A stretch of DNA of 64,000 nt, taken from positions 55,225-119,224 of the forward strand of contig CAZGJD010000003.1 of the NCBI GenBank assembly GCA_964526385.1, written 5' to 3'. Source of the DNA: an uncultured Candidatus Poseidoniales archaeon (GTDB lineage: Archaea > Thermoplasmatota > Poseidoniia > Poseidoniales > Poseidoniaceae). Numbering within the stretch: position 1 is the first letter of the stretch; each line of letters opens with the position of its first letter. This document shows, one piece after another, positions 28,044-46,879 of the stretch. Position numbers and translations under genes: made by a program. The notes beneath the pieces are model-generated. The model was not told where the DNA came from. It did no database searches and was given only the letters and a program-made list of their open reading frames with translations.

Positions 28044-30161
28044 ATGGAACCAGTAACAATGGTTGTTATCGGCTTGGCTTTGATTGTTTGTGCTTATATG
28101 GCATGGAACATAGGGGCAAATGATGTTGCAAACGCAATGGGAACTTCGGTTGGTTCGAAAGCACTAACGCTTAAGCAAGCGGTGATTATTGCCGCTGTTT
28201 TCGAATTCGCTGGAGCATTTTTTGCCGGTGATGCTGTCACTAAAACAGTTAGGAAGGGCATCTTAACGGTTGATTTCTCAACTGTAACTCAAGAGATTTC
28301 CCAAGATATTGCGTTTGGATTTATTGCTGCTATGATGGCGGCTGCAGTTTGGCTAACTATCGCCACAAGAATGGGTCTTCCAGTATCTACCACACACTCG
28401 ATTATCGGAGGAATAATTGGTGTTGGATTGGTATTAGAAGTCGATCACAATGCAGAATATATCGATTGGGAAGTAGTGCAAAAAGTGGTCATGAGTTGGG
28501 TCGCTAGCCCACTTATGGGTGGACTTCTCGCCTTCTTTTCTTATTGGATTATCAAAAAGACCATCCTCGACGCAGAAAATCCCGAACAAAGGTCGATGTG
28601 GTTAGCTCCTATTCTTGCATTCCCAACTTTCTTTGTTCTAGGCCTAGCACTGCAATTCAAGGCATTGAAAGGATTCTTTGCAAGAGCTGAATCAAATGGC
28701 TGGATAGAAGACAAGACTTCGTGGCTTCCCGCTAAAGAAAATGGAGTATGGGATCCATTTGCAGAGGCAGCTTGGCTCCCAATTAATTCCCTAATTCTAG
28801 CTGCAGTTATTGGCGCATTAGGTTCATTGAGCCTTTACATGGTTTTGAAGAAAATTGACATCAATGAAGAAAGCAAAGGATTCAAAGGCGTGGAGAGAAT
28901 TTTCGTATGGCTACAGATTATTACCGCAGCGTATGTGGCATTTGCACACGGAGCTAACGACCGTTCGAATGCTATTGGACCTATGGCTGCAGTTTGGCAA
29001 GTATTGTCAAATGATTCAGGCATGCTAATGGAACAAGCCGATATCCCTCTCTGGTTAGTTCTGCTTGGTTCAGCAGGTATTGCAATTGGTGTGATGACTT
29101 GGGGATGGAGAGTTATGGAGACTGTTGGAAAGAAGATTACAGAAATCACACCAACACGTGGATTCGCTGCCGAATTTGGTGCTGCAACGACAATCTTGGT
29201 TTTCTCAATGCCTTTCTTGGCAGTACCTGTTTCAACAACCCACACACTAGTTGGTGCTGTTGTCGGCGTAGGTTTAGCTGGTGGAGCAAAGGCAGTAGAT
29301 TTCAGAGTATTTGGAAAGATTGCAGCATCCTGGGTCGCAAGCGTCCCTGTAGCGGCATTCGGTGCAGCAACAATCTACATCGCTTCAGGCGGAGATAATC
29401 TCAAAATGATTATCCTGCTACCGATTGCTTTCGCAGCAGTAGGAATTGCCATGTGGAGAACACGAGGTGGGGAAATCCATGTCGAGGAAGCATTATCGGA
29501 TGCTGGAAGTTCTGAAAAAGGAGAAACACCATTTGAGTTATTCCATAAACACGCTGTTGCGGTCGAAGCAACTGTTTCCCACATGTTAGATGCGGTCAAC
29601 AAAACCGCCAGTGGTGAAGATGCAAGTGATGAAATCAAGGCTACAGTAGAAGCGGAGTTAGATGCAGACAATATCAAAACTGAACTGAGAGATATGATGC
29701 AGGATACCGACATAAGATTGATTGTTTCAATGGATGATTTCTTGAGAATGCTGTCGAGGCAGGATAGAATTGCTGACTATGCTCAGAATGTTGCTGAACA
29801 ATTGAGTTTCAGAAAATTATACGATAACAAAGAAGCAAGAGAAATGCTGGTTGAGATGGCAGAAGCTGTTTCTGCGACAGTCGCAATATACGAAGACACC
29901 GTTGAGTCTTTGAGAGACTTATCTCTTGGTGGAGAAACCAGAATTGCAAAGCGCAAGATAATGGAATTGATCAAGGAAGTCAACCTGAAGGAGCACGAAG
30001 CAGATGAAGTTGAAGCAAAGGCCGCTGCTCATGTATTTTCTACAGGCGATGATGATGCTTTGGCTGCAATGCACATGTACAGAGTTCTTCAGAGAATGGA
30101 TGACGTGGCGAATGCATGTGAAAAGGCGGCTAACGCATTAATTCCTCTATTGACCAAATAA
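28044..30161 (+). CDS. inorganic phosphate (or sulfate) permease of the PiT family fused to a C-terminal PhoU-like domain
   Basis: The PiT signature GANDVANAMGTSVGS appears near the N-terminus and the repeat GANDRSNAIGPMAA in the second half. About 10 TM helices. A C-terminal soluble helical region of about 200 aa resembles PhoU. A TATA-like CTATATAGA sits about 50 nt upstream and a GAGGA SD-like element lies just before the ATG. Confidence 0.85.
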   Translation: MEPVTMVVIGLALIVCAYMAWNIGANDVANAMGTSVGSKALTLKQAVIIAAVFEFAGAFFAGDAVTKTVRKGILTVDFSTVTQEISQDIAFGFIAAMMAAAVWLTIATRMGLPVSTTHSIIGGIIGVGLVLEVDHNAEYIDWEVVQKVVMSWVASPLMGGLLAFFSYWIIKKTILDAENPEQRSMWLAPILAFPTFFVLGLALQFKALKGFFARAESNGWIEDKTSWLPAKENGVWDPFAEAAWLPINSLILAAVIGALGSLSLYMVLKKIDINEESKGFKGVERIFVWLQIITAAYVAFAHGANDRSNAIGPMAAVWQVLSNDSGMLMEQADIPLWLVLLGSAGIAIGVMTWGWRVMETVGKKITEITPTRGFAAEFGAATTILVFSMPFLAVPVSTTHTLVGAVVGVGLAGGAKAVDFRVFGKIAASWVASVPVAAFGAATIYIASGGDNLKMIILLPIAFAAVGIAMWRTRGGEIHVEEALSDAGSSEKGETPFELFHKHAVAVEATVSHMLDAVNKTASGEDASDEIKATVEAELDADNIKTELRDMMQDTDIRLIVSMDDFLRMLSRQDRIADYAQNVAEQLSFRKLYDNKEAREMLVEMAEAVSATVAIYEDTVESLRDLSLGGETRIAKRKIMELIKEVNLKEHEADEVEAKAAAHVFSTGDDDALAAMHMYRVLQRMDDVANACEKAANALIPLLTK

Positions 30162-30255: not shown

Positions 30256-33200
30256 ATGACTGCAAGGGCTATTTCACTAATTGTCATACTCTTATTGGCA
30301 CCTGTTTCAATCTTGATTGAGCCAATAGAAGCAGGCGTTTCTGGGAGGGCATTGGCTTGCTCAGGCTCGGTATGCCTAAACGAGGCTTTACCGAATCCAA
30401 GTGGATATGATGATGCAACATGGCCTAATGGAGAATGGATGGAGATTCATAATTCAGGGTCTACAGCAATTGATATTCTAAATTGGGAACTCGAAAATAA
30501 AGCAGGAAAGATTCTACAATTCAATTCGACGACAATAGTCGGCTTTGAAAGTGGCAATTCATCGACCTGGACAATTTCACCTGGTGAGTATATGGTAATT
30601 GCAAGAAATGGATATGGTAATTTCTACTTGACAAATTCATTCGATTACATAACTATGACAGACGCATCTGGCAACTTCAAAGACCAAGCCTCTTGGAATT
30701 CAACATCGTCTGGCGTCAGCTTAGAAGAGGATTCAGCAAACTCGATGAACGATTGGATTCCAACCAACACACCAACCCCAGGATCGGCAAATAGTCAAGC
30801 AACTGGACCTGTTTACACTGGAGTATTGTTCAATGAAGTTATGGCAAACCCATTCTTTTCTGAGGATAATTCTTCATGGCCGGGCGGTGAGTGGATTGAA
30901 CTGCACAACGAAGGCACATCAGATGTAGATTTGACAGGATGGACAATCGTTGATAATGCTGGAAATAATATCCCCCTAAATGAATCACACTTAATAGGAA
31001 ATTCCAATATCATAGTAGCTGGAGGATACAGGGTTATTGCAGTCAATTCATCCAATGCATGGGGTGTTTTGAATAACGGAGCAGAAAGTTTGCGATTGAC
31101 CATTGCAAATGGTTCCACCACAGACCAAATTTCTTGGACTGATACCGTTGCTGGATTTTCATCAGAAGAACTCGCAGATGGTTCTTGGTTCGTAACTTCT
31201 TATCCATCACCCGGAACTGAAAACCCTAACCTTTGGACAAATATTGTTGACATGCAATCTGACGTTGTAATTACCGAGGTATTGGCTAATTCATCTAGAG
31301 ATGGATTCGCATATCCGGAAGGAGAATGGGTGGAATTGCACAACACAGGAAATACAGACTGGGACCTAGCTGACTGGAAAATAAGAGACGGAATGGGAAA
31401 TTTGACTCATATCAATATTGGAAATCTGGTAATGAATAATTCGCAACCAGGGACAATTATTGCAGCAGATTCTAGAAGACTCGTTCAATTTTCAGAATTG
31501 GTGACATTATGGAACCAGTATAACCATTTAATGCTGGAAGACCCTACTGGGAATGTCGTTTACAAAGCATGGTGGGATTCTGACCCTGGATTAAACAACT
31601 CTTTGATTGAGGCCCAAAATCCAGATCTTCCTTGGGTTATAGCGAGTTGGCCAACACCCGAAAATCCAGAACCAGGCACTACTTCGATTGTTGGAGATAT
31701 AGCATTCAATGAAATATTCCCCGACGCAATAGGAAACGATACCGATGTTTGGCCAAATGGTGAATGGATTGAATTGATTAACACAGGTACTCAATCAGTA
31801 GATATCGCAAATTGGTACTTTTCATCAGGTTCGAGAAATTTCAATATTAACGTAATTCAACTACCTGAAAAAGATAGTACGACAATAAACCCGGGTGAAA
31901 TTTTCGTTGTCGCCATAAATGGAACACAGAGTTTCTACCTAAAGAACACCGCACCTGATACAATTGAACTAAGGAATTCTGCAAATCAAATTGTTTCAAC
32001 AATAACTTACAACAAAACAACAGAAGGAGAATCGCTTTGGTATTGGAATAACGACTGGACTCAAGCACCTTATCCAACCCCTAATCAGCCGAACCCGCAA
32101 ACTTCTCCTTACGCTGGAGATGTTAGCATAGAAATTACCGAGGTGCTAGCCCACTGTTCTTCCGACACTATCACGCCGTTAGACGATTGGATTGAAGTCA
32201 ATAATACTGGAGGCCAAGCGATTGATTTGAATGCGTGGAGATTAATTTCTGGAGACGGTGATCTAATTCATGCAAGGTCTGACCGATTGTACAATTCAAT
32301 CAACACTCTAATCCAGCCTGCAGACAGAAAAATAATCACTGCTCCGAACTGGTTTATCAGTGGCCTCGGCGATTCAGTAACCCTCGAGGACCCTGATGGA
32401 AACGTCGTTGATTCTGTTGTTTGGACGACTGTCACTGATTGTAAAACAATGGACTCAGATGGCGAGGTATTACCTTGGCCAACGCCCGGTTATGAGGAAC
32501 CTGATATTTCCTCATACGCAGGTCCAGAAGACCTCGTTTTTAGTAGATTCATGTTCCAAGAATCAAGTGCTTCAACCAATGATGAATTCTTTGAGATAAC
32601 AAACATCGGAAATCGAACCGCCGTAATGACCGGCTGGACCGTAACAAAAACAACAACTAGTGGACAATCATTCAATGGTACATTCAATTCCTTATTCATA
32701 GATTCAGGGAATTCAGTTATCATCAGCCCAGATGCAAGTGCTGTTAAGGCAATGGAACAATCAACAATTGTTAATGCAGAGGATGTAATGGATTTCCCAG
32801 TTTGGCTTCCTGACAGTGGTTCTACAATACAATTGATTTCTCCACTTGGGGTAGTTGCTGACACTTTCGTATATGGCAACGGACCAACTGACCTTGTTGG
32901 ATGGTCCGGTCCAGCGATTAGTGAACCTGTAACAACTGTGGATAGAATTCTGTATATTCGTGGCGATGGTTGTGGAAACTTGGTTGACACAAACCAATCC
33001 GCTGATTGGGAGATTAGGTGGTCGGTTGCAGGGGCTTCACACTTCTGTGGTATTAACTCATTTTCAGACAACGCAAACGTTACGCCGTTGATTGCACCAG
33101 AAGCAGGTTTAGACAATGTTGTTTCGATGATTAATGATGCTCAACAAAGCATACACGTACACATTTACCAACTGCATCATGTTAACCTCGCTTATGCATT

Positions 33201-35013
33201 AATTCAAGCACAGACTAGAGGGGTCGAAGTGACGGTAGTTATTCACGAGCCTGAAAATTGGTGGTCTCAAAGCGAGATTTCTCAAAGTAGAGGCATAGCA
33301 TATGAATTAGAAAATTCCGGTGTAGATGTCCTGCAATTCTCATCATCTTCATCCTCACCATACCAGTACCTTCACTCCAAAGTATCAGTAGTGGACGATG
33401 AAGTCGTTTGGTTCGGTTCTGGTAATTGGAAATCTTCCAGTATGCCAGCAGATAATCGTGGCAATCGAGACTGGGGTATAATCATCGAGAGTTCTGATTT
33501 AGCGCAAATCGTCCTTGAAAGGATAACATTTGATGAAGACCCAAGCCAACTCCATGTTGAAGATTCCACATTTACACAACCCGCATCGGGTTCATATGAA
33601 TCTCCAATTGAATACGTACCAACAAACATCAAACAACCTATGCTTGAATCTGTAAATGGGGAATTGTTGACCTGTCCAGATGATTGTGTACAAGGACTTG
33701 CGGAATTGATTCAATCCGCAGAATCCGAAATCTTGCTATCCTTGCAATATTTCGAAATGGACTGGTATTGGGGTTGGCAAACAAACCCCCTCCTCGAATC
33801 CTTGGAGGATGCTGCTGAGAGAGGTATAACAATACGCATGGCAATCAATCAACACTACGTAAATGAAAATCCTGGGATAAGAGAAGCAGTGAATGAGTTA
33901 AACAGTTGGCAAGGTGATGTTGAAGCAGTCCTCATGTCTGAAAACGAAACTGTCCGAAAACTTCACAACAAAGGTATGATTATCGATGGAGAAATTGTCT
34001 TAGTTTCCAGTATCAACTGGGGTGATAACTCAATTCTAAGAAATAGGGAGATGGGAATCGCAATTGAGAACGCAAACATCGCTGCCGTTTACGAACAGTC
34101 ATTCTGGGAAGACTGGAATAGAATGGATACCTACACAGATACGGATATTGATGGAATTCCAGATTATTGGGAGCTAGAAAATGGGTTGGACAGAACCATG
34201 GATGACAGTGGGCTCGACAATGATAATGACGGAATTACTAACCATGGAGAATTTACATATGGTTCAGATCCAAACTCGAACGATAGCGATGGAGATTGTA
34301 TTCTTGATGGGGATGAGGTAATTTGGGCGTCACAAACAACAGGAGTTACAGCAAGCAATGCTCTCTTGCTTGAGGATGCAGATCTAGATGGGTTAAAGGA
34401 TAGTGAAACACTTGGTTGCAAACCTGAAATTCAAGGAGAAATCATGGATGAAGATGACGACGGAGTGGTTGATTCTGAAGATGATTGCCCCAATACTGCA
34501 ACTGGCGACCAAGTTAATTCAGATGGCTGTTCACCTGAACAGATTACTCAACCTGTAAACAATAATGATGCAGATGAGGACGGGATTCCAGATGATGAAG
34601 ATGAATGTCCGAACACACCCCCAGAAACGGCTACAGATACACAAGGATGTTCCAGTGAGCAAAATAAGGAACAATCTTCAGATGATTCCCAAGGTAGTAA
34701 TGATTCCAGTGGGTTAAACTTCATGATAGTTTTAATCGTAATTGGCACAATCATTTGTGGAGGTGCACTGTTCGTTCTATTGAGGAATCCAACACCACAG
34801 GTTGACGTTTTGGAAGGTATAGATGATGATTCTAAGTCGTATGAAATGCCAGTTTTGGACGGCACTAACGAAGTAGAAAATCAAGGAGGAATAGATATGA
34901 GTAAATTCCCAGGATGGGACACTAGTCAAGTTGAGCGTTACCTAGAATCTGGGTGGACCGAGGAACAACTATCTGAATGGTATCAGCAACAAATTGAGGA
35001 AAATTCCGCATAA
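30256..35013 (+). CDS. 1,585-aa secreted surface protein: signal peptide, at least 5 lamin-tail-domain (LTD) repeats, a phospholipase-D-family (two HKD motifs) phosphodiesterase/nuclease domain, thrombospondin-type-3-like Ca-binding repeats, and a C-terminal TM anchor
   Basis: Signal peptide MTARAISLIVILLLAPVSILIEPIEAG. LTD-like repeats EVMANP...WPGGEWIELHNEGTSDVDLTGWTIVDNAGN, EVLANS...EGEWVELHNTGNTDWDLADWKIRDGMGN and three more. HKD motifs HSKVSVVDDEVVWFGSGNW (nt ~33361-33430) and HNKGMIIDGEIVLVSSINW (~33961-34020). D-rich repeats DTDIDGIPD, DNDNDGITNHGE, DSDGDCILDGDE, DEDDDGVVDSEDDCPNT. TM helix MIVLIVIGTIICGGALFVLL. Confidence 0.75.
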   Translation: MTARAISLIVILLLAPVSILIEPIEAGVSGRALACSGSVCLNEALPNPSGYDDATWPNGEWMEIHNSGSTAIDILNWELENKAGKILQFNSTTIVGFESGNSSTWTISPGEYMVIARNGYGNFYLTNSFDYITMTDASGNFKDQASWNSTSSGVSLEEDSANSMNDWIPTNTPTPGSANSQATGPVYTGVLFNEVMANPFFSEDNSSWPGGEWIELHNEGTSDVDLTGWTIVDNAGNNIPLNESHLIGNSNIIVAGGYRVIAVNSSNAWGVLNNGAESLRLTIANGSTTDQISWTDTVAGFSSEELADGSWFVTSYPSPGTENPNLWTNIVDMQSDVVITEVLANSSRDGFAYPEGEWVELHNTGNTDWDLADWKIRDGMGNLTHINIGNLVMNNSQPGTIIAADSRRLVQFSELVTLWNQYNHLMLEDPTGNVVYKAWWDSDPGLNNSLIEAQNPDLPWVIASWPTPENPEPGTTSIVGDIAFNEIFPDAIGNDTDVWPNGEWIELINTGTQSVDIANWYFSSGSRNFNINVIQLPEKDSTTINPGEIFVVAINGTQSFYLKNTAPDTIELRNSANQIVSTITYNKTTEGESLWYWNNDWTQAPYPTPNQPNPQTSPYAGDVSIEITEVLAHCSSDTITPLDDWIEVNNTGGQAIDLNAWRLISGDGDLIHARSDRLYNSINTLIQPADRKIITAPNWFISGLGDSVTLEDPDGNVVDSVVWTTVTDCKTMDSDGEVLPWPTPGYEEPDISSYAGPEDLVFSRFMFQESSASTNDEFFEITNIGNRTAVMTGWTVTKTTTSGQSFNGTFNSLFIDSGNSVIISPDASAVKAMEQSTIVNAEDVMDFPVWLPDSGSTIQLISPLGVVADTFVYGNGPTDLVGWSGPAISEPVTTVDRILYIRGDGCGNLVDTNQSADWEIRWSVAGASHFCGINSFSDNANVTPLIAPEAGLDNVVSMINDAQQSIHVHIYQLHHVNLAYALIQAQTRGVEVTVVIHEPENWWSQSEISQSRGIAYELENSGVDVLQFSSSSSSPYQYLHSKVSVVDDEVVWFGSGNWKSSSMPADNRGNRDWGIIIESSDLAQIVLERITFDEDPSQLHVEDSTFTQPASGSYESPIEYVPTNIKQPMLESVNGELLTCPDDCVQGLAELIQSAESEILLSLQYFEMDWYWGWQTNPLLESLEDAAERGITIRMAINQHYVNENPGIREAVNELNSWQGDVEAVLMSENETVRKLHNKGMIIDGEIVLVSSINWGDNSILRNREMGIAIENANIAAVYEQSFWEDWNRMDTYTDTDIDGIPDYWELENGLDRTMDDSGLDNDNDGITNHGEFTYGSDPNSNDSDGDCILDGDEVIWASQTTGVTASNALLLEDADLDGLKDSETLGCKPEIQGEIMDEDDDGVVDSEDDCPNTATGDQVNSDGCSPEQITQPVNNNDADEDGIPDDEDECPNTPPETATDTQGCSSEQNKEQSSDDSQGSNDSSGLNFMIVLIVIGTIICGGALFVLLRNPTPQVDVLEGIDDDSKSYEMPVLDGTNEVENQGGIDMSKFPGWDTSQVERYLESGWTEEQLSEWYQQQIEENSA

Positions 35014-37997: not shown

Positions 37998-38051
37998 TAA
38001 ATCCTTTTTACAATGGATGGTATCATATAGGAATTGCTTTTCGGGTGTCTT

Positions 38052-38124
38052 GCCGATTTAGCTTAGTTGGTGGAGCGTGGGACTGTTAATCCCAAGGTCA
38101 TGGGTTCGAGCCCCATAATCGGCG
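38052..38124 (+). tRNA. tRNA-Asn (anticodon GTT)
   Basis: GCCGATTTAGCTTAGTTGGTGGAGCGTGGGACTGTTAATCCCAAGGTCATGGGTTCGAGCCCCATAATCGGCG. Perfect 7-bp acceptor stem; anticodon stem TGGGA/TCCCA with loop CTGTTAA; T-arm ATGGG-TTCGAGC-CCCAT; discriminator G. Its D-arm is identical to that of the tRNA-Met gene. Confidence 0.9.
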
Positions 38125-38216
38125 TAATATATTACACCCAACTTGGAATCAATTGATATAATCTAGATTTTTTAATATAGAATGGTGTTAAATATTACCG
38201 TAATTTACTATAATAC

Positions 38217-38714
38217 ATGGACATTGCAATCGAGGCGGCAGTTCTTGCGGCTAAGACTTTGTTTAGCGCATATGGAGGATATTCCACTAAGAGTGCTATA
38301 GAAGATGACCAAAGTTTCAGAAACGAAATTGAACGTAGACTAAAGACAATCAAAAGGCATGTTGAGAATATCCAAACGACTGCACATGAAGAAAAAATGC
38401 GAGACGCTCGTGACATTAGCGAGAGTTTACTAAGCATAATCCACCAATCTATTGACGATACAAAAATGTCAATCAGCAAACAAGCACTTCACTCTATCAA
38501 TTCAAACCTCAATCGCAAGGCAAAAAAGAAGCTTGTTGAGCACGACCTCGAGACCCTTGAAAGATTGGTCAAGGTAACAAATCAGGTAAACGAAGTTCAG
38601 GAATTGATGTTTGATTCAGATGAGGGTGAAGTAAAGAAAAATCTTCGTTCTTTGAAACAAAATTTAACTGGAGCGAGAAATCATTTCTCGCATAGAAATG
38701 TGATACTGGAGTGA
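38217..38714 (+). CDS. small all-helical/coiled-coil protein of unknown function; first gene of a three-gene coupled operon
   Basis: 165 aa, no TM. Heptad-like charged sequence. AT-rich upstream region with TATA-like TTTAATATA / TTACTATAATA. Its stop lies 6 nt before the next start. Confidence 0.4.
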   Translation: MDIAIEAAVLAAKTLFSAYGGYSTKSAIEDDQSFRNEIERRLKTIKRHVENIQTTAHEEKMRDARDISESLLSIIHQSIDDTKMSISKQALHSINSNLNRKAKKKLVEHDLETLERLVKVTNQVNEVQELMFDSDEGEVKKNLRSLKQNLTGARNHFSHRNVILE

Positions 38715-38719
38715 GAAAA

Positions 38720-40060
38720 ATGAACTATAAATGGCGAACAAACCCGGCGGTAATTGCACAATATGTGATGGACAAACACGTACCCAATGGTAGCAAAATT
38801 GTTCTGAAACCAAATGAAGCATGTGTTGTACTTGAAGGAGGAAGAGTAGCAGGAATTGCTACACAAACAGAAATGGAAATCAACCCAAGATTAGGAGCAA
38901 TTTCAAGATTCTTTGGCAAACAGAATCCTTCACGCTCTTTCTTGTTTGTATTCCTTGGACCTCATGATGTCATGCTACCCCTAAATGGGAAGACAAGTGA
39001 TGGACAGCAAGTACAAGGAATGGGATTCATTCGAATCATGTTCGACCGTGAATCTTGCCCAAAGTTACTTCAAATGGCTGCTAAAGGAACAACTACTGTT
39101 ACATTGGCAGATATTTCTCGTAGTTTAATCCAAGAGGCGACAACCAAAATCAATCAGGACATTCTAAATTCTGTAACTTTGGAACAACTTAGATCCGATG
39201 TGAATGTTAGCAAGGATATCTCTTCCACATTGCAAATAGCATTGAGAAATACTGCGGCATCTTATGGATTTAGCATTTCATCCGCTTGGTCTAACTGGAT
39301 GGATACTGAAACTGAGAGGTTGGATAAAATGCAGGTTGACCTAGAAAATCTTGCTCGTAAGAACCACCTTATGGGAGAAAACGAGCAAGAGCACGCTGAC
39401 AAAGTTCTCTCCAGTCAAATTCGTAAATTCGAATTACTGCATAATCTACACGTTGCTGAACTAACTGCGGACGCAAAGAAAAATGCGGCCGCTGAGTTAG
39501 CGCAGATTGAAGCAAATATCGAAGTTGACAGGGCCAAGTGGAACCAAATTCGTGACCAAGAAGTAAGACAAGCAAATCACTCCGCAGAACTTCATGCGAT
39601 TAGAAGAGACGAGCAACTGGCTGAATCTTTGCACGCTATTGAACTTGCAAGAAATCAACTCGATGTAAAACAAATGGAAATCGACCAAAATTTTGCTAAT
39701 CAGGAACGACAACAACAAATGGCACAAGATAATGTCAAATTTGCACATGATCTTGAACAAGACAAACTTGATTCCAAGACAAATAGAGCAATGGACATGT
39801 TTGCTCAGGTGCAGGAAAACAAGCGAAAGAGAATGGAAATGGATGCAAACCGAGAGCAAGATAGACTGCAAACCCAATCTGATATGAGCAACAAAATGTT
39901 GGACACCTTAGCAAATATCGCTAGTTCAACTAACGATAGTCAAGTTGCAATCGAGGCGCTAAAACAACTTTCTGAACTGAGAAAATCAGACGTAAAAGCT
40001 TCATCTGATGCATATACAACTGAATCAGAAAAAAGTGGTGATGAAGACCCAAAAGTGTGA
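38720..40060 (+). CDS. SPFH/band-7 (flotillin-like) domain protein with a long C-terminal coiled coil, no TM segment
   Basis: N-terminal KIVLKPNEACVVLEGGRVAGI...TEMEINPRLGAI...NGKTSDGQQVQGMGFIRIMFDR parallels the flotillin/SPFH PNEALVVSGG...QRISLEIMTLQP...TKDN...VAQVKI pattern. The C-terminal ~250 aa have flotillin-like charged coiled-coil repeats (AELAQIEANIEVDRAKWNQIRDQE...). Track start 38711 is GTG; the ATG at 38720 is preceded by GGAGTGAG. Confidence 0.5.
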   Translation: MNYKWRTNPAVIAQYVMDKHVPNGSKIVLKPNEACVVLEGGRVAGIATQTEMEINPRLGAISRFFGKQNPSRSFLFVFLGPHDVMLPLNGKTSDGQQVQGMGFIRIMFDRESCPKLLQMAAKGTTTVTLADISRSLIQEATTKINQDILNSVTLEQLRSDVNVSKDISSTLQIALRNTAASYGFSISSAWSNWMDTETERLDKMQVDLENLARKNHLMGENEQEHADKVLSSQIRKFELLHNLHVAELTADAKKNAAAELAQIEANIEVDRAKWNQIRDQEVRQANHSAELHAIRRDEQLAESLHAIELARNQLDVKQMEIDQNFANQERQQQMAQDNVKFAHDLEQDKLDSKTNRAMDMFAQVQENKRKRMEMDANREQDRLQTQSDMSNKMLDTLANIASSTNDSQVAIEALKQLSELRKSDVKASSDAYTTESEKSGDEDPKV

Positions 40061-40686
40061 ACGAAAGTGAGGCTGCTGGTTCAGTCTCTCTTTCTGATAA
40101 CGTGATTAACGATAGCGTAATCAATATTTATTACGGGTCAAAAGAAGAGAATTTGACCGAAGAGGAAAAAATCAATGATTTCCGAAGAAGAATCAAAAAT
40201 TCTACTAAATCAAACAACATTGCTAGAGAATTGGATTCAATAGCTGTCGAGTTAAAAAAGCAAATTGCCGATTTATCACCCGATGGCTTGAACTCATCTT
40301 GCGTCCCATATCTCTCTCTTCTGGGATTGTGTAACTCTAGACGTGGAAAACTTAACGAAATGAAAGAAAATATCGAACAGGCTTTGAAAATTGACCCACA
40401 CGATGAACAAGCAAACTTGGTTTTTGGTGAACATTATTTCGACTTATATCAGCGCTTGACGAGTAAATCAGACCAGCAGGGCGCGATGAATATGGGTATT
40501 TTCCACTACAGGGATGTTTGGAATAATGCAGTCAATTTGGGGGCGAAAAACAATGCTGGCTATCATTTGTGTATCTTATTAGTAGAACGAGGCGACTTGA
40601 ATGAAGCCAGACAAATCAAAGAAGAAATATTAGCAAATATTTCAAATCCCGAAGGAAGAAAACGAATTGAATCAATAGACATTTGA
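40057..40686 (+). CDS. TPR-like helical repeat protein of unknown function
   Basis: GTG start overlapping the upstream TGA (GTGTGA). 209 aa. The C-terminal half has TPR-like helix pairs (ALKIDPHDEQANLVFGEHYFDLYQRL; GYHLCILLVERGDLNEARQIKEEIL). Confidence 0.4.
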   Translation: MNESEAAGSVSLSDNVINDSVINIYYGSKEENLTEEEKINDFRRRIKNSTKSNNIARELDSIAVELKKQIADLSPDGLNSSCVPYLSLLGLCNSRRGKLNEMKENIEQALKIDPHDEQANLVFGEHYFDLYQRLTSKSDQQGAMNMGIFHYRDVWNNAVNLGAKNNAGYHLCILLVERGDLNEARQIKEEILANISNPEGRKRIESIDI

Positions 40687-41490
40687 TCATAATTTTGCAA
40701 TCAACAAACTGCAATTATCTGTGCTCCCTCTATCCAGAGCATTCTGAACCATCAAGACTGGGATATTGTTGATACCTTCTACTAAAGAAGGAACTTCAAG
40801 GCCGTTTTCGGTGTGCAGTGGGCCCCAAACTCCATCACAACAAATTATGACGATACAATCCTTAGTTAGAGAAATTTCTTGGATTTGAGGTTTGCATTCA
40901 TTTTCACTTCCTAGGGACATTGTTAATACATTACTTCCGTGAGTTGATTCAACTTCGTGCAGTTTGATATATCCTGCTCTTACCATTTCTCCCGTCATCG
41001 AGTGGTCTTCACTTAACAAGTTCCATCCGTTTGCAGTAGAGTAATACATCCTTGAATCTCCAACGTGAACTAAATCAGACCACGCCACAGTACCATCTTT
41101 ACTCTTGAAAACTATTAGCGATGTTAGAGTTGAACCACTTTTTCCACCCTCGACTATGCCAACATATTCGACTGATTTGTTGGCTAATTGCACACATAAA
41201 TCCCAGGATTGTTTTCTTTGTTCAAAAATTGTACCTTGGGTGAAACCTCTTGAGATGTATTCCACAACGTCAGTAAAGGCGAGTCCTGCGTTTTCGCTGG
41301 CCTTTTCTCCGCTTGTCCCACCTCCCATTCCATCGAGAAGGCTATAGCAAAACAATACCCCGTCTTCTCTTTCAAAAGAGGTTGAAATTATGAAATCTTC
41401 ATCTTTTGGGCGTAGTCCGGTTACTGATTCAGCAAAGGTATTTGCCGTTGTGACCTTAACTCTATTATCCAAAATATCACCTATTGCCAA
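40687..41490 (-). CDS. PP2C-family (PPM) Ser/Thr protein phosphatase
   Basis: Metal-binding motifs LLDGMGGGTSGEKAS, CCDGVWGPL and the C-terminal GSTDNCSLLI. The TTG start at 41490 overlaps the 3' end of the upstream kinase gene by 10 nt. Confidence 0.8.
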   Translation of the reverse strand: MAIGDILDNRVKVTTANTFAESVTGLRPKDEDFIISTSFEREDGVLFCYSLLDGMGGGTSGEKASENAGLAFTDVVEYISRGFTQGTIFEQRKQSWDLCVQLANKSVEYVGIVEGGKSGSTLTSLIVFKSKDGTVAWSDLVHVGDSRMYYSTANGWNLLSEDHSMTGEMVRAGYIKLHEVESTHGSNVLTMSLGSENECKPQIQEISLTKDCIVIICCDGVWGPLHTENGLEVPSLVEGINNIPVLMVQNALDRGSTDNCSLLIAKL

Positions 41491-43820
41491 GTTGTATAGT
41501 CACTTGATGCTGAAGACTGGTTTGTCTGAATTTGACCACCTTGATTTCTTAAAATCTGCTGGAATTCTGAGACCGTTTGAATTCGTTGTTCGTTTCTTGG
41601 CCAAGCGGACCTAATCATCAAATCGGCTAACCAAACCGGAGAGCCTAAACTTATCATCTCATTCTTTTCCATTTCAGTAATTATAGTAGGAGGAACTTTG
41701 TACGTCATAAGGTAATACAAACACTTACCCAAACTGTAAACATCTGTGAAAGGACCTGAAACCCCAGAATCTCTTTCTGGAGCGGTCCAGGTTCCGCTTC
41801 CACCTCTTGTTACGCTGATGTCACTTCCAGTAGCAACTATTTTTGCAAGGCCGAAGTCGATTACAATCGGTCCTCGTTCAGGATGTACAATTATGTTATG
41901 AGGTTTCAAGTCTCTGTGATAAATTGGTTCTGGCAACGATGCCATGTAGATTAATGGCTCACAGGATTGATCTAACAATTCAATAATTCTCTCAAGTGGT
42001 ATAGTCGCATTCATCTTCTTACATTGTTCAACCGTTTCTTGTAATGAACCACCGGGAATGAATTCCTGAATCAAAACGGTTGTTTGTGCACCTTCTGGAC
42101 TATTCGAATATCCATGAGTGATGTATTTCGGTAGCCTCTCATGTGCCAACTGCGTTAGTAATTCGCATTCACCCAACATTTTCTGATTCGATACGCTGAA
42201 CGGATTAAATCGGTTGTGAGATTCCTTCCATGCAACTACCTGTCTAGTCGTAGTGTGCGTTGCTCTGTAAACGTCCGCCATACCTCCTTGAGCAATTAAT
42301 TCATGTCTGGTATATACAACCAAATTTGGGTCTGCATTAGCGCCAATTTTACTGCCTGAATTTGTTTGAGTGTTAGCGTATTGTGCAGTATTTGCTGCTG
42401 AGTAATTCGATGTGCTTGATATAGCGCCCTCCGATTGTAATAAACTGTAGGCATCATTCATGTCTTGCTGTGCACTTGCCGTCAAAGAACGACTCGGCTG
42501 ACCGGTTTGGAAATTAGTTGGCGTTTGTTGTTGATAGGCAGTCGATGGAGTACTTGCTACAGACTGTGTTTGGTTAACATAACTTGGGTAGGATACTGAA
42601 CCATAATCTTGCTGAGTATACTGATATTGCTGAGCTATGGGCTGTCCTTGTGTTGTAATAACTTGATTAGATTGGAATAAATTAGGCCTAGTTAGGTCTT
42701 GATGATTTTTTAATTTCTTAATTTCCGTGTAAAAATTATTATGATTTACAATAAATAAAATCCAAGTAAAGAACAATACACCAAACCCTATTACAATATT
42801 TGTAATATAATATTCATCATCACCATATAGACTATACCAACTACACCTCTCGTTTTCAGACCCGTAAGGAGTGTAATAATGTTCACAATCTACCCAAAGG
42901 TTCTCTATGAAAATAATATCCATAGATACACTTGCTATCATAATGATCAATATTAAACGTTGACCAAAGTTACCATATTCTACGGCCTTTAATTGATTTT
43001 TAGTGGTAATAAAAGGATAACAAGATACTGCTAAGAGTGCGACCAAGACGAATACTAATAAAATTTCATCGCCAAACAAAAGAGAAATCGGGAAAATACA
43101 TAAACAGTAAACGATCAACATTTTCCATCCTTGTAATAATCCCTTGAATGTGTTGTTTTCTTTGCTGTGAACAAGTCTAGTAAAAATCTGTTTTGTTATT
43201 ATATGTCTAATGATTAAAACAAACGCAACAATAAAAGCAAAAATTCCTAGCGTGATAAAACCAAACACAAAATTCGGATAGTAGTAAGCATATTCATACG
43301 CATTATAATCAGTAGAACTGAGTGTGAAAAAGGTAAAATTTAACCACCATATGAAAATCCATAATATAGCAACATTCAGGATTTTAATGGAAGTTGAATT
43401 GAAGTGAAATTCGATACCTTCTACTGAAGCATGCAGTAAAAGAAGCCTGCGGTGCTCTTCCATTGCAAACGGGATTATCATTAAATTGATTAGAGGAATA
43501 AAAGCCATTGCAAAGAGAAATTTTTGAAAATCCCCCCTCACACCTAATTTTACGAGATAATTCATCTTGTTTGAAAGTGAAATACAATACGCCATACCAA
43601 ACAAGTAGGATGGTATCATCCACCATCCGAAATTTCCTATAACCCAGAAGGTGATAAAAGCAAAAATTACAGTGTTAACCGGTAAGTGTACAATTCTTAA
43701 ACTATCCTTGATGTATGATGTTTCTCCCTGCTGAAACTGTTGAAGAGGGTAAGGCTTGATAACTTGGTTATTTGTCAAAATGGTCTGATGAGAGAACATT
43801 TGTTGACCTGCTGGAATCAT
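41481..43820 (-). CDS. Hanks-type Ser/Thr protein kinase with a ~370-aa N-terminal polytopic membrane domain and a Q/Y/T-rich linker
   Basis: Kinase subdomains LIAQGGMADVYRATH...VAWKE (G-loop/VAIK), HRDLKPHNIIV (catalytic loop), DFGLAKI, GTWTAPE. The N-terminal half has at least 9 TM helices. The track start at 43829 is TTG (checked); the ATG at 43820 is preferred. Confidence 0.85.
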   Translation of the reverse strand: MIPAGQQMFSHQTILTNNQVIKPYPLQQFQQGETSYIKDSLRIVHLPVNTVIFAFITFWVIGNFGWWMIPSYLFGMAYCISLSNKMNYLVKLGVRGDFQKFLFAMAFIPLINLMIIPFAMEEHRRLLLLHASVEGIEFHFNSTSIKILNVAILWIFIWWLNFTFFTLSSTDYNAYEYAYYYPNFVFGFITLGIFAFIVAFVLIIRHIITKQIFTRLVHSKENNTFKGLLQGWKMLIVYCLCIFPISLLFGDEILLVFVLVALLAVSCYPFITTKNQLKAVEYGNFGQRLILIIMIASVSMDIIFIENLWVDCEHYYTPYGSENERCSWYSLYGDDEYYITNIVIGFGVLFFTWILFIVNHNNFYTEIKKLKNHQDLTRPNLFQSNQVITTQGQPIAQQYQYTQQDYGSVSYPSYVNQTQSVASTPSTAYQQQTPTNFQTGQPSRSLTASAQQDMNDAYSLLQSEGAISSTSNYSAANTAQYANTQTNSGSKIGANADPNLVVYTRHELIAQGGMADVYRATHTTTRQVVAWKESHNRFNPFSVSNQKMLGECELLTQLAHERLPKYITHGYSNSPEGAQTTVLIQEFIPGGSLQETVEQCKKMNATIPLERIIELLDQSCEPLIYMASLPEPIYHRDLKPHNIIVHPERGPIVIDFGLAKIVATGSDISVTRGGSGTWTAPERDSGVSGPFTDVYSLGKCLYYLMTYKVPPTIITEMEKNEMISLGSPVWLADLMIRSAWPRNEQRIQTVSEFQQILRNQGGQIQTNQSSASSDYTTWQ
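41700..41935 (-). repeat. near-identical nucleotide segment shared by the two kinase paralogs (copy 1)
   Basis: 41701-41935 and 44101-44335 align at about 90% nucleotide identity, including a perfect 46-mer (TACAAACACTTACCCAAACTGTAAACATCTGTGAAAGGACCTGAAA). Confidence 0.7.
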
Positions 43821-43877
43821 GTCCCTCAATCTATGCTAACCCTCTATCACATAAATTGATTTCCGACATTATGCCTA

Positions 43878-46007
43878 TCAAGACCAAGTGGTAAAGTCAC
43901 CTGAAGATATACTTTGACTCCTGTCAAATGAAAGATTACCCTTCGAATGCAATATTTCATTGAAATGACGCACGGTCTGTATTCTTTGGTCATGAACTGG
44001 CCAAGCTGCGTTCAGCATCAAATCAGCTAACCAATCTGGTGCGCCATTTTGAATCATTTCTTGTTTTTCTCTATCGGTTACAATCGTTGGAGGAACTTTG
44101 TATGTTATCAGGTAATACAAACACTTACCCAAACTGTAAACATCTGTGAAAGGACCTGAAATTCCTGAATCCCTTTCTGGAGCGGTCCAGGTTCCACTTC
44201 CTCCTCTTGTTACGCTGATGTCACTTCCAGTAGAAACTATTTTTGCCAATCCGAAATCGATCAGTACCGGGCCTCTGTCAGGATGAACGATTATGTTATG
44301 AGGTTTCAAGTCTCTGTGGTAAATTGGTTCATCCAGGGTGGCCATGTAAATTAGTGGCTCACAGGTTTTACCTAGCAGATCTATAATCCTGTCTTGTGGG
44401 ATTATAGCACCCATTTTTCTACACTGTTCGATTGTTTCTTGAAGGGAACCTCCTTCGATGAACTCCTCAATGAGTACGAACTTTTCTTGACCAAAGTCTG
44501 CTGAAACAGAACCCCTTGCTATGTATTTTGGAAGCCGTGGATGTTCTAAAAATTCGAGAAGTTCACATTCTCCGTCGATTTTCATATTCGATACATTAAG
44601 TGGATTAAAATCACCATGGGCTTCTTTCCATACAACTTGATTTCTCGTTGTTTTATTTATTGCCGCATAGACATTAGCCATTCCGCCTTTTGCAATAAGT
44701 TCCTGCTTCTCATACACCGATAAACCATCTGTCAAATCTTTGATGGGATTGGTGTTTGTGTTATCGTTTCTTGTAGGATTTAAATCCTTCAATTCCGGCG
44801 CCTCAATGCGTGGTGTGGAAATAGAGTTGACGGCCGAATTGATTAGGCTGTTAGATTCTGTTTGGATATTATTTGACTCGTCTTTTGTATCCATGCCATT
44901 TGCTACTAGCAACTTCTGATGTTGTAAGTCTAAATTTCTATGAGTATTTGCAATTGCGATTAAAACACACAATAGCAAAGCACTGTGAATTAAAATTATT
45001 ATCAGTTCAAGATCTGAAATTTGAAAATCAAGTTCTGAACTTGCCTGATATGTATAGTAGCCCTTCCATTCATAAACATATAATGGCGTAAAAAATAGAA
45101 TAATTACCAAAAACAATAACTTGAGACTAAAATCCATTAAATTGCTATTTGAATAAACTCTGGAGAAATTTTTTGTGAAGTACAAGTAAATTAAAACCGA
45201 TGTCTCAGAGAGGAAATATGCATATACAATACTGGTTAATTGTGATTGCATCATATTTTCGATATTAAATAAATCTGGCATAATTATGTAGTAAAATGTA
45301 AACAATGCAGTAAACAATGTAAAAACAAACAAGTCAATTGAAGAACTAACCTCCTCACCATGTTCAAACCATGATGCTGTCTGCTGTTGAATAACAAAAT
45401 GAATAAGTATTGAAAAAGATATTAATAAAATCCCAAAAATGGTCGAAAGGTTGGATTCTCCAATCTCTTCTTGATACCAATCTAAATTTACAGATAAAAT
45501 TAAAGCAATAAAAGTAGACAAAACTAGAACGTAATTTAATGCTGTAATCCAATTCCTACCGAAATTGAAATCCAATTCTTCAGCAGAGCAATGCAGATGA
45601 ATTAGCCTTCTATACTCGTCATAAGCAAATGGTATAATTAATAAATTCATTAGGGGTATGAATGCTATCCACTTCAAAGAATCTTTGAGATACCGTCTAT
45701 CAGGCATTATAGCTAATTTATCAAATCTGTAATATATTGATAATGCCAAAACCAATCCAAAAATATACGCTGATATGTAAAAAAACCAAAAAAATCCAAC
45801 CAAAATCGTTGATAGAAATACAAAGGTAGGCGTATCAATGAACTTATCTTGTTGCTTAAATGAGTTTTTGATAGACGTAATTTCCAATTCTGTGAATTGA
45901 GCTAGGTCATAATTTGTAAAAACAGAAGATTTGGAATCCGATAACGATTCCCCTCTCCCTTCGATGTAGGAAAAACGATTTGCTTCCATGTAAATTCCTC
46001 TAATCAT
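43878..46007 (-). CDS. paralogous Hanks-type Ser/Thr protein kinase with an N-terminal polytopic membrane domain
   Basis: The kinase domain is about 85-90% identical to the upstream kinase at the protein level (HRDLKPHNIIVHPDRGPVLIDFGLAKIVSTGSDISVTRGGSGTWTAPERDSG). The membrane domain shares the motif IAFIPLMNLLIIPFAYDEYRRLIHLHCSAEELDFNF (kinase 1: AFIPLINLMIIPFAMEEHRRLLLLHASVEGIEFHF). Confidence 0.85.
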   Translation of the reverse strand: MIRGIYMEANRFSYIEGRGESLSDSKSSVFTNYDLAQFTELEITSIKNSFKQQDKFIDTPTFVFLSTILVGFFWFFYISAYIFGLVLALSIYYRFDKLAIMPDRRYLKDSLKWIAFIPLMNLLIIPFAYDEYRRLIHLHCSAEELDFNFGRNWITALNYVLVLSTFIALILSVNLDWYQEEIGESNLSTIFGILLISFSILIHFVIQQQTASWFEHGEEVSSSIDLFVFTLFTALFTFYYIIMPDLFNIENMMQSQLTSIVYAYFLSETSVLIYLYFTKNFSRVYSNSNLMDFSLKLLFLVIILFFTPLYVYEWKGYYTYQASSELDFQISDLELIIILIHSALLLCVLIAIANTHRNLDLQHQKLLVANGMDTKDESNNIQTESNSLINSAVNSISTPRIEAPELKDLNPTRNDNTNTNPIKDLTDGLSVYEKQELIAKGGMANVYAAINKTTRNQVVWKEAHGDFNPLNVSNMKIDGECELLEFLEHPRLPKYIARGSVSADFGQEKFVLIEEFIEGGSLQETIEQCRKMGAIIPQDRIIDLLGKTCEPLIYMATLDEPIYHRDLKPHNIIVHPDRGPVLIDFGLAKIVSTGSDISVTRGGSGTWTAPERDSGISGPFTDVYSLGKCLYYLITYKVPPTIVTDREKQEMIQNGAPDWLADLMLNAAWPVHDQRIQTVRHFNEILHSKGNLSFDRSQSISSGDFTTWS
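44100..44335 (-). repeat. near-identical nucleotide segment shared by the two kinase paralogs (copy 2)
   Basis: See copy 1. This is the catalytic-loop to activation-loop coding region of the second kinase. Confidence 0.7.
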
Positions 46008-46102: not shown

Positions 46103-46879
46103 ATGGGCGATGATGATAACGACATCATTAGCCCTGATGGGCACTACCGCTGGAATGGAGAAGAATGGGAATTAATCGACATTGTTAAAACACTTGAAAA
46201 AATTTCTCAGGAAACATCAGAAACTTTGAATGAAGAATTTCAAACTAATGAACCAAATCAAGAAACTGAAACGATAACTCAAGAATCAATTTCGTTAAGC
46301 GAAAGTGAATCAAGTCATGGTATTTTGGGTGATTTCTTCAATAAGTTACTTTCTAAAGAAAAAACCGCTCTGAAATTCATCCTTCTAAACTGGTGGGGAT
46401 GCTTAGTTTTAATTCTGATATGTTTCAATGTAATTTCAATTGGTTCTGTTTACGTAGATCCATGGGACCCGTTTGAAGCAGTATTTTATTTCGGCTCAGA
46501 GAGATGTGCTTGGGATTCTACACCCTGTTTTGAAAATCTTGATATTTTCTCGATGAATTATACTTTCCGAATTTTTGTCTTTATTTCGTTGTTCATGTAC
46601 CTAATTAGTTTCTACTTGAATGTCTATTCACTTGCGGAAGGTTCACACCCATCAAAAGTAAATCTGAATTTTTCCATTGCTGGTAATCTCATGTTGATAT
46701 TTTCTGCACTTTACTACTACAATTCTAACATTTTAGATAGAATTGAAATTACTACAGGATGGTCGTCTTTCAATTTTAGACCCATGATTGGCATTCATCT
46801 TTTGCTACTAACGGGAATTTACTCTTTAGTTTACAATCTAATATTTTGGAAACATACTAAAGAAAATCCAATCATTTGA
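46103..46879 (+). CDS. membrane protein of unknown function with an acidic N-terminal cytoplasmic region
   Basis: 258 aa. The N-terminal 90 aa are E/T/Q-rich, followed by about 5 TM helices. No recognisable motifs. Confidence 0.4.
   Translation: MGDDDNDIISPDGHYRWNGEEWELIDIVKTLEKISQETSETLNEEFQTNEPNQETETITQESISLSESESSHGILGDFFNKLLSKEKTALKFILLNWWGCLVLILICFNVISIGSVYVDPWDPFEAVFYFGSERCAWDSTPCFENLDIFSMNYTFRIFVFISLFMYLISFYLNVYSLAEGSHPSKVNLNFSIAGNLMLIFSALYYYNSNILDRIEITTGWSSFNFRPMIGIHLLLLTGIYSLVYNLIFWKHTKENPII

Follow-up and report, generated by a model that had tools for sequence, protein, structure and literature searches.

A translationally coupled gene pair of marine group II archaea encoding a predicted anchorless SPFH protein and an orphan helical partner

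Three coupled genes in a Poseidoniales genome

The window analysed here is a 64-kb stretch of DNA from an uncultured Candidatus Poseidoniales archaeon (contig CAZGJD010000003.1; mean GC content 0.41), and our subject is a cluster of three genes on its forward strand, which we call A, B and C, shortly downstream of a tRNA-Asn gene. Gene A (38217-38714, +) encodes a 165-residue protein from an ATG start, which is predicted to be a four-helix bundle of an orphan family. Gene B (38720-40060, +) encodes an SPFH/flotillin-like protein of 446 residues from its ATG, or of 449 residues from an alternative GTG start at 38711, and gene C (40057-40686, +; GTG start) a lineage-specific, TPR-like protein of 209 residues. 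An earlier note on this DNA had described these as a coupled three-gene operon. The open reading frame (ORF) calls and our reading of the junctions show that three coupled forward-strand genes do follow the tRNA, and the peptide strings which that note quoted are found in the sequence. As we argue below, however, the conserved unit across marine group II (MGII) archaea is not the triad but the translationally coupled A-B pair, and C was added, together with a PP2C-type phosphatase and two membrane kinases, only in the sublineage of the window genome.

The two junctions account for the coupling. By our reading of the sequence, the stop codon of A (TGA, 38712-38714) is followed by 5 nucleotides and then by the ATG of B at 38720; the tight coupling claimed for this junction therefore stands, with a gap of 5 rather than 6 nucleotides. 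An element resembling a Shine-Dalgarno sequence, GGAGTGAG (38708-38715, +), covers the stop codon of A and ends 4 nucleotides before the ATG of B. At its other end, B closes with GTG-TGA (40055-40060), and the GTG start of C at 40057 overlaps the stop of B by 4 nucleotides (GTGA), just as had been noticed before. Since the spacing between the stop of A and the start of B lies between 4 and 6 nucleotides in 56 of 64 related loci, and since the same 4-nucleotide overlap of B and C recurs in three other contigs that carry C (L001, L002 and L018), the coupling of the three genes is unlikely to be a product of chance.

Protein B is a predicted SPFH protein without a membrane anchor

On its predicted structure, B is a cytoplasmic SPFH protein in which an SPFH domain is followed by about 230 helical residues, with no predicted transmembrane (TM) anchor. 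The structures of A and B were predicted as monomers, and the AlphaFold2 model of B was built on an alignment of 36 sequences, with a mean predicted local distance difference test score (pLDDT) of 78.8. Residues ~10-195 (38747-39304, +) form a beta-rich and then an alpha/beta domain, which we delimited from the secondary structure of the model, the invariant columns of the alignment and the Band_7 matches of relatives. They are followed by a helical or coiled-coil region (residues ~195-426; 39302-39997, +), delimited from model and alignment, with predicted helices at residues 195-213, 220-245, 250-403 and 407-426, the third of which is a single continuous helix of about 150 residues. Invariant motifs include W5-R6..P9 just before the SPFH domain and L29-K-P-N-E-A-C35 at its start, while the helical region holds a conserved C-terminal motif, RAMDMFAQVQENKRKRM, which has a look-alike in two distant relatives of B (P0223 and P0328).

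In a Foldseek search with this model, all 50 listed matches were SPFH proteins or the major vault protein, each at a probability of 1.00. The E-values were 6.5e-9 for stomatin, 2e-8 for flotillin (across 437-455 alignment columns) and 5e-6 to 9e-5 for the major vault protein. Both an SPFH alpha/beta fold and a C-terminal helical region of flotillin type are thus present in the predicted structure, in line with what had been proposed from the letters alone, and we are highly confident of the SPFH fold on the strength of the model. Given that B has no direct Band_7 match, this assignment rests on predicted structure and, transitively, on the matches of relatives: Pfam Band_7 (PF01145) gives weak matches in 6 of 36 close homologues, with a best E-value of 4.5e-5. 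A search of PDB sequences with the B family profile returned only designed helical repeats and low-complexity helical matches.

None of the three proteins contains a recognisable TM segment, the highest mean Kyte-Doolittle hydropathy over 19 residues being below 1.3 throughout and reaching no more than 0.84 in B. Where a membrane hairpin might be sought, the alignment of B shows a conserved polar and aromatic motif, M..(F/Y)(R/K)WR.NP. The Foldseek matches, taken together with the lack of a predicted TM segment or hairpin, indicate that B would be an SPFH protein of flotillin length without an anchor. Two further suggestions of the earlier note hold up here, namely that B lacks the N-terminal hairpin and that it has no NfeD partner, for neither A nor C has an NfeD match in Pfam or a TM segment, and A is modelled as a four-helix bundle.

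Protein A is an orphan helical protein

The partner encoded upstream of B has no significant match in Pfam, NCBIfam or the sequences of the PDB, whether it is searched as a single sequence or as a family profile; the profile search of the PDB gave designed helical repeats and low-complexity helical matches only. Its structural model, based on an alignment of 44 sequences, is of high confidence (pLDDT 87.9; predicted template modelling score 0.85) and is helical throughout, as expected from the sequence. It consists of a helix at residues 3-15, a loop with a conserved Y-x-G-Y motif, a four-helix bundle with helices of about 22-32 residues each, and a short fifth helix. Structures named beside this model are IncA (11.7), the Rx coiled-coil domain (10.3), CHMP3 (8.9) and MLKL (8.6), and the ESCRT-III matches came behind numerous generic or designed bundles. 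When the A family was compared with E. coli PspA by hhalign, the probability was 0.14%, and on this result we rejected the assignment of A to PspA or ESCRT-III that we had considered; no member of the family has a PspA_IM30 or Snf7 match in Pfam. The small proteins encoded beside distant SPFH relatives in four loci (L086, L087, L088 and L091) were also considered as possible homologues and proved unrelated. With no relative in the databases and this very low PspA probability, we regard A as a predicted compact four-helix bundle that makes up an orphan family.

Twelve residues of A are invariant (Y19, G21, Y22, D31, E37, R40, H48, K104, L106, H109, D110 and N125), and the helix boundaries suggest that most of these lie toward one end of the bundle. 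The C-terminal tails differ between lineages: those of MGIIa are polybasic (GLKQKKVKK), and most of those of MGIIb read GLVKR.

The A-B pair is the conserved unit

To place the cluster among its relatives we scanned one genome per GTDB species, which yielded 80 loci, nearly all of them in metagenome-assembled genomes of Poseidoniales and drawn from both families of the order. Neighbours were counted after clustering all ORFs of these loci, 78 of which contain B. A lies immediately upstream of B in 73 of the 78, in both MGII families. C, the PP2C gene and the kinases, by contrast, are absent from about 70 of the 78, and the triad is accordingly not the conserved unit. The pairing is not limited to the core family: in a diverged metagenomic locus (L092; GC content 0.37), a gene for 212 residues lies 5 nucleotides upstream of a B-like gene and encodes a homologue of A (hhalign probability 95%, E-value 2.6e-8, 156 columns), and the A-B pairing therefore reaches beyond it. 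Taken together, A and B are very likely a functional pair.

Two side observations belong to these loci. The A homologue of the diverged locus (237-875, +) has a moderately hydrophobic, glycine-rich C-terminal stretch, YLGTAIGIVLTTGGLYLY, which we considered as a tail anchor and rejected as too weak (hand-calculated Kyte-Doolittle mean of about 1.4). In addition, two contigs with an MGII-type B are binned as Salinimicrobium sp. (L041) and as an Enterobacteriaceae bacterium (L044), and are most likely mis-binned archaeal contigs.

After A, the most frequent neighbour of B is a membrane protein of the PAP2_3 family (lipid phosphate phosphatase or sphingolipid-synthase-like), which is encoded no more than two genes away from A-B in 39 of 78 loci. 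Two arrangements occur: in 28 loci, which all fall on the MGIIa side of the B tree, its gene is co-directional and immediately downstream, and in about ten, mostly of MGIIb, it is divergent and upstream; examples are the genes at 9201-9956 (+) in L069 and at 6550-7347 (-) in L004. No PAP2_3 homologue was found in the 64-kb window itself. In at least ten loci, a protein with a zinc ribbon, a Tudor domain and an EF-hand is encoded divergently upstream of A (for example at 1442-2488 (-) in L010), and in five others (L022, L026, L034, L035 and L046; B at ~7980-10570) Tudor and EF-hand domains are fused to the C-terminus of B in proteins of 861 residues. The occurrence of the same domains as a fusion and as a separate gene suggests a Rosetta-stone link, and with it a Ca2+-responsive adaptor of the scaffold. 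An N-terminal signature, 'DS..SGDI..TVINN', seemed at one point to be common to the Tudor/EF-hand proteins and C, but a hidden Markov model of this motif misses the C family.

Housekeeping functions make up the rest of the conserved neighbourhood, with genes for an ABC transporter, an SSF symporter, ribosomal protein L15e, GcvT, ThiN, aminotransferases and a radical-SAM enzyme. NfeD, a protease, PspA, ESCRT-III and Vps4 were not found among the conserved MGII neighbours scanned. A few kb upstream of the cluster, the window encodes a PHO4-PhoU_div phosphate transporter (28044-30161, +) and a secreted or anchored giant protein of 1585 residues (30256-35013, +). Several MGIIb loci have homologues of both at a distance of no more than 8 kb from A-B, a long-range synteny that argues for vertical inheritance of the region.

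A small clade with zinc-ribbon relatives

Searching B against 5.8 billion proteins returned 66 homologues, a few of which bear precomputed Band_7 matches; wherever an organism is named, it is a marine group II archaeon (Poseidoniales, Thalassarchaeaceae or 'Euryarchaeota archaeon'). When the N-terminal 210 residues were searched as a profile, just 333 of 1.84 billion representative proteins matched at E ≤ 1e-3, and a number this low implies a small, separate clade rather than the bulk of Band_7. Within the 88 distant relatives of B, defined by a profile E-value below 1e-8, Band_7 is matched by 30 (best E-value 3.6e-9, 37.4 bits against a cut-off of 23.6), and about 34 carry single or double zinc ribbons at the C-terminus. 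The MGIIa homologues P0062-65 likewise end in a zinc ribbon, CxxC...CPxCG. These Band_7 matches and zinc ribbons describe a clade with the architecture SPFH domain, coiled coil and zinc ribbon, mostly without a TM segment. The ribbon is absent from B of the window, and to judge by the sequences it has been lost in this protein and its close relatives.

The position of the ribbon may not be entirely empty in some of them. A motif, SPDG-x-[FYW]-x-W-[ND]-G-x-[DE]-W, ends the B homologues P0041 and P0043-P0049 and the Tudor/EF-hand fusion of L022 where others have CxxC..CPxCG. It also forms the N-terminus (MGDDDNDIISPDGHYRWNGEEWELI) of a window protein with three TM segments (46103-46879, +), the gene of which is divergent from that of the kinase K2 described below. 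On sequence, this motif may be a cysteine-less relic of the zinc ribbon.

Some distant relatives deserve mention for their surroundings. In P0255, by our reading of the sequence, the SPFH domain is directly preceded by a hydrophobic stretch, possibly a TM helix. Locus L087 (metagenomic contig Ga0526692_0005403, 274-8667) places a distant relative with SPFH domain, coiled coil and zinc ribbon in a co-directional cluster, the order being a 629-residue protein, a 199-residue protein, an AAA ATPase, a 198-residue protein and a second AAA ATPase, followed by the SPFH gene itself and then by a zinc-ribbon/DUF4268 protein. Both ATPases are classical and of a single domain, and the first, the only one checked, best matches the D2 domain of Cdc48/p97; neither of the two proteins of about 200 residues has a Pfam or PDB match. 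This cluster may be an ESCRT-like or adaptin-type system such as those described in PMC10936438. KaiC/GvpD-like ATPases lie near another distant relative (L090), and there is nothing notable near a third (L085).

Protein C and the neighbouring kinases

Downstream of B, the window departs from most of its relatives. C had been described as a TPR protein, and this holds for one clear TPR-like motif, at residues ~85-125 (40309-40431, +; ...ALKIDPHDEQANLVFGE), which is detected by TPR_8 and by the PDB profile search and is conserved in the alignment of the C family. It does not hold at the level of accepted domain matches: TPR_8 (residues 86-115, E-value 0.0019) and TPR_19 (167-194, E-value 0.0014) of Pfam and PilW of NCBIfam (94-147, E-value 3.6e-4) all fall below their cut-offs, and the C homologues of L002 and L018 have no Pfam match. 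A profile of four C sequences matched a long engineered, many-repeat TPR target in the PDB at an E-value of 6.7e-12, which is a sum over its repeats, and a short synthetic consensus TPR at 0.0035. All of these PDB matches run through one motif, ALxxDPHxEQAxLxxGE, with the best stretch at profile positions 103-145. On its sequence, C is thus best called TPR-like. Its homologues are confined to three species-level genomes, namely the window species (L001 and L081), L002 and L018, and a scan of metagenomes with C returned only a copy of the window locus that is 100% identical.

The neighbouring phosphatase and kinase genes had been noticed before, and profile matches in NCBIfam and Pfam confirm their catalytic domains. 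They comprise a PP2C-type Ser/Thr phosphatase (40687-41490, -; Stp1/IreP of NCBIfam at an E-value of 3e-30, together with Pfam PP2C) and two polytopic Ser/Thr kinases on the same strand, convergent with the A-B-C cluster. K1 (41481-43829, -; Pfam Pkinase, E-value 5.9e-27) combines N-terminal TM segments with a C-terminal Hanks-type kinase domain, and K2 (43878-46007, -; E-value 5.4e-26) is its tandem paralogue. A stretch of 300 nucleotides is 85% identical between them at a register of 2400 nucleotides, and their N-terminal multi-TM halves are AT-rich, with a GC content of 0.31-0.35 as compared with 0.41, and match nothing in Pfam. C and the PP2C gene are separated by no intergenic bases, their stops abutting in TGATCA at 40684-40689, and in L002 the two genes overlap by 9 nucleotides; the 3' ends of the transcripts must therefore overlap.

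That the triad travels with kinases is true of C and not of the pair. In each of the three species-level genomes with C a kinase is convergent on it, the PP2C gene lies between the two in L001 and L002, and homologues of K1 flank the module in L002 and L018; A-B, however, mostly occurs without kinases. In a rough neighbour-joining tree of B, the loci with C fall in one MGIIb subclade, which they share with the Tudor fusions. Beyond MGII, an unrelated metagenomic relative (P0273) has a Band_7 match at residues 30-235 (E-value 2.8e-7) fused to a kinase N-lobe at residues 276-365 (E-value 2.9e-14), which is cut off by the end of the contig. In L088, a Ser/Thr kinase is encoded two genes upstream of an SPFH, coiled-coil and zinc-ribbon gene on the same strand, and a gene for an M48 membrane protease follows the SPFH gene. 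The fusion, the neighbour in L088 and the three MGII genomes together make a connection between this SPFH clade and Hanks-type kinases plausible on sequence grounds, much as the earlier note had supposed.

A scaffold with a constant adaptor and exchangeable modules

How might these parts work together? We propose that B is a peripheral scaffold to which A is a constant adaptor, that further modules are exchanged between lineages, and that in the window genome the scaffold is coupled to kinases; we put the probability of this composite at about one half. By analogy with the solved SPFH proteins HflK/C, flotillin, prohibitin, stomatin and erlin, B would probably self-associate by way of its SPFH domains and long helices and so build a ring- or cage-like structure on the cytoplasmic side of the membrane. 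Such a membrane-associated oligomer is a tentative suggestion. As B has no anchor of its own, contact with the membrane or with clients would probably be supplied by its partners. A would be a stoichiometric adaptor that may aid such contact, in MGIIa with its polybasic tail as part of this role. A variable second module, occupying the same position across lineages, would then select the client: a C-terminal zinc ribbon, a fused or adjacent Tudor and EF-hand protein, a neighbouring PAP2 membrane protein or, here, C. In the window genome, C could link the scaffold to the phospho-signalling operon K2-K1-PP2C, with the scaffold as either a substrate of the kinases or an organiser of these membrane proteins. 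This kinase coupling is the more doubtful part of the proposal.

Several observations weigh against the composite. Direct Pfam, NCBIfam and PADLOC scans of B from the window gave nothing, and hhalign comparison of its N-terminal profile with E. coli YqiK and HflC was insignificant (E-values 0.034 and 0.61), the templates being single sequences that are too weak for the comparison. In the lineage of the window A ends in ...RNVILE, without the basic tail of other lineages. The association with PAP2 could be inherited gene order, and the kinase link within MGII, which rests on three species-level genomes and on genes that are convergent and not co-directional, could be plain synteny. Moreover, the major vault protein stands among the Foldseek matches of B, and this raises the alternative of a soluble assembly away from the membrane, with B building a vault-like shell or a coiled-coil filament and A acting as a cofactor of assembly. 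No TM or clear amphipathic helix is present in A, B or C, and the single predicted helix of some 150 residues in B would suit such a structure. All solved SPFH assemblies among the matches other than the major vault protein are nonetheless membrane-associated, and membrane proteins are frequent neighbours (PAP2_3 in half of the loci, the polytopic kinases here and the M48 protease in L088). With the possible TM helix just before the SPFH domain of P0255, and with MGIIa tails of a type that would typically bind anionic lipids, a soluble assembly appears unlikely. Less probable still is membrane repair of the PspA/ESCRT-III type, with A as a divergent polymer of that kind and B as a YdjI-like recruiter to damaged membrane. 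B does share the architecture of YdjI/SamI, with no TM segment, an SPFH domain, a helical region and, in relatives, a zinc ribbon (PMC8581546); SPFH, coiled-coil and zinc-ribbon proteins occur in archaeal ESCRT-like loci (PMC10936438), and in L087 a distant relative adjoins two classical AAA ATPases and two proteins of about 200 residues. The hhalign probability against PspA and the missing PspA_IM30 and Snf7 matches speak against it, as do the compact bundle of A, which is not the long hairpin of ESCRT-III and PspA, and the low rank of its ESCRT-III matches. So do the lack of Vps4 and ESCRT-III among the conserved MGII neighbours scanned and the Band_7_1 signal in B, which is weak and found in 3 of 36 members (best E-value 0.053).

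The two remaining explanations have very little probability. A canonical flotillin or stomatin scaffold of membrane microdomains, anchored by itself and accompanied by an NfeD-type partner or a protease, would explain the SPFH fold and the flotillin-length helical region. It is refuted at the level of sequence as regards the anchor and the NfeD partner: hydropathy reveals no hairpin or TM segment in B, the N-terminus of which is the polar and aromatic motif given above, the adjacent proteins A and C are helical, TM-less and unlike NfeD, and no protease gene lies beside the module in MGII loci. The other explanation, also raised in the earlier note, takes the cluster for a horizontally acquired island or an anti-virus defence system at the tRNA-Asn gene, in which the kinases and PP2C would sense or regulate and the SPFH triad would be the effector. 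The tRNA gene (anticodon GTT; 38051-38125, +; called by ARAGORN, 71.8 bits with Rfam) does end 91 nucleotides before the start of A. Combinations of kinase, phosphatase and scaffold occur in defence loci, and K1 and K2 match PADLOC kinase models such as mad6 and PD-T4-6. These models contain a generic kinase domain, which is what the matches reflect, and PADLOC gives no match for B or C and only E-values of 0.0028 or worse for A. As to an island, no integrase is encoded among the ORFs from tRNA-Asn to 46.9 kb, as had been noted, and the 23-nucleotide 3' end of the tRNA, proposed as a boundary repeat, has no second copy in the window, not even at up to 3 mismatches. The direct repeats between 37.9 and 47 kb reflect the paralogy of the kinases or chance. 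At 0.39-0.40, the GC content of A-B-C differs little from the window mean, the AT-rich stretches being the TM-rich halves of the kinases, and no homologue of B was found in IMG/VR or in phage and plasmid collections. The tRNA-Asn gene adjoins A in the window genome only and in none of 47 other related loci scanned, while A-B is found in at least 73 loci of both MGII families beside housekeeping genes. The reading as an island or defence system is therefore largely refuted, and tRNA-Asn is a mere neighbour without a functional part in the A-B-C module. Between the two, a candidate archaeal TATA box, TTTAATATA (38171-38179, +), was picked out by eye 38 nucleotides 5' of the ATG of A, and its sequence makes it a possible TATA box of A; a scan for sigma-70 promoters, a model that is irrelevant for archaea, found matches at chance level only.

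Comparison with known systems

Marine group II archaea rank with the most abundant archaea of the plankton and are uncultured, so that their cell biology is inferred from genomes alone. Our analysis defines a gene pair that is conserved widely across the order and encodes a predicted anchorless SPFH scaffold with an orphan four-helix-bundle partner. In a full-text search of the literature, no paper came up in which Poseidoniales and SPFH are both mentioned, and Pfam has no model for the A-B family. Two features appear to be new, namely the orphan A as an obligate partner and the broad conservation of A-B across Poseidoniales. Nothing known is overturned, and the function that we propose is inferred. 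The modules that seem to be exchanged around the pair (zinc ribbon, Tudor/EF-hand, PAP2, TPR with kinases, kinase fusion) nevertheless suggest how SPFH scaffolds gain clients, and the recently recognised class of cytosolic SPFH proteins represented by YdjI/SamI would be extended to archaea with a different obligate partner.

Set against the membrane-bound members of the superfamily, B has the same fold and length as flotillin and HflK/C; HflK/C, flotillin-1/2, prohibitin, erlin, stomatin and QmcA, however, all have a TM segment or hairpin at the N-terminus, and several of them are associated with a protease or NfeD, neither of which applies to B. Stomatin-NfeD operons (Pyrococcus PH1511/PH1510, E. 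coli QmcA-YbbJ) likewise couple a small partner tightly to an SPFH gene, but the partner A is encoded upstream and is all-helical and soluble, whereas NfeD is membrane-anchored with an OB fold or protease domain, and the SPFH protein B is itself without an anchor. The major vault protein offers a precedent for an SPFH-like shoulder with a very long cap helix that builds a cage without a membrane anchor. Unlike B, it is eukaryotic, has nine N-terminal repeat domains and lacks a small obligate partner, and it resembles B only in the shoulder and helix region.

Closer parallels are found among proteins with zinc ribbons. A component with an SPFH domain, a coiled coil and a zinc ribbon has been described in the 'Meth_adaptin' ESCRT-like loci of Methanobacteriales (Makarova et al. 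2024, PMC10936438). This domain architecture recurs in the wider clade of B, roughly 34 of the 88 distant relatives having zinc ribbons, and L087 adjoins AAA ATPases; the likeness is one of architecture, as Vps4, ESCRT-III and an adaptin appendage are lacking among the conserved MGII neighbours scanned.

The nearest counterpart is YdjI/SamI of B. subtilis. Encoded in the pspA-ydjGHI (samGHI) operon, it is a cytosolic SPFH protein without an anchor, and it relies on partner proteins to reach the membrane (PMC8581546; bioRxiv 10.64898/2026.02.06.704340). B resembles it in lacking a TM anchor and in the low-complexity or helical stretch after its SPFH domain, with a zinc finger at the C-terminus in most relatives of B. 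The operon of B, on the other hand, contains neither PspA nor membrane proteins like YdjG/H, the window protein has lost the zinc ribbon, and B is paired instead with A, an unrelated orphan four-helix bundle. YdjI presumably belongs to the Pfam family Band_7_1 (PF13421). That family, matched as weakly in B members as noted above, is not among the top families of the 88 distant relatives, and by sequence B is not a member of it. The A-B module differs from the YdjI/SamI class in PspA, in YdjG/H and in Band_7_1 membership, and yet it is this class, a cytosolic SPFH protein brought to the membrane by its partners, that by analogy it would most resemble in the way it works.

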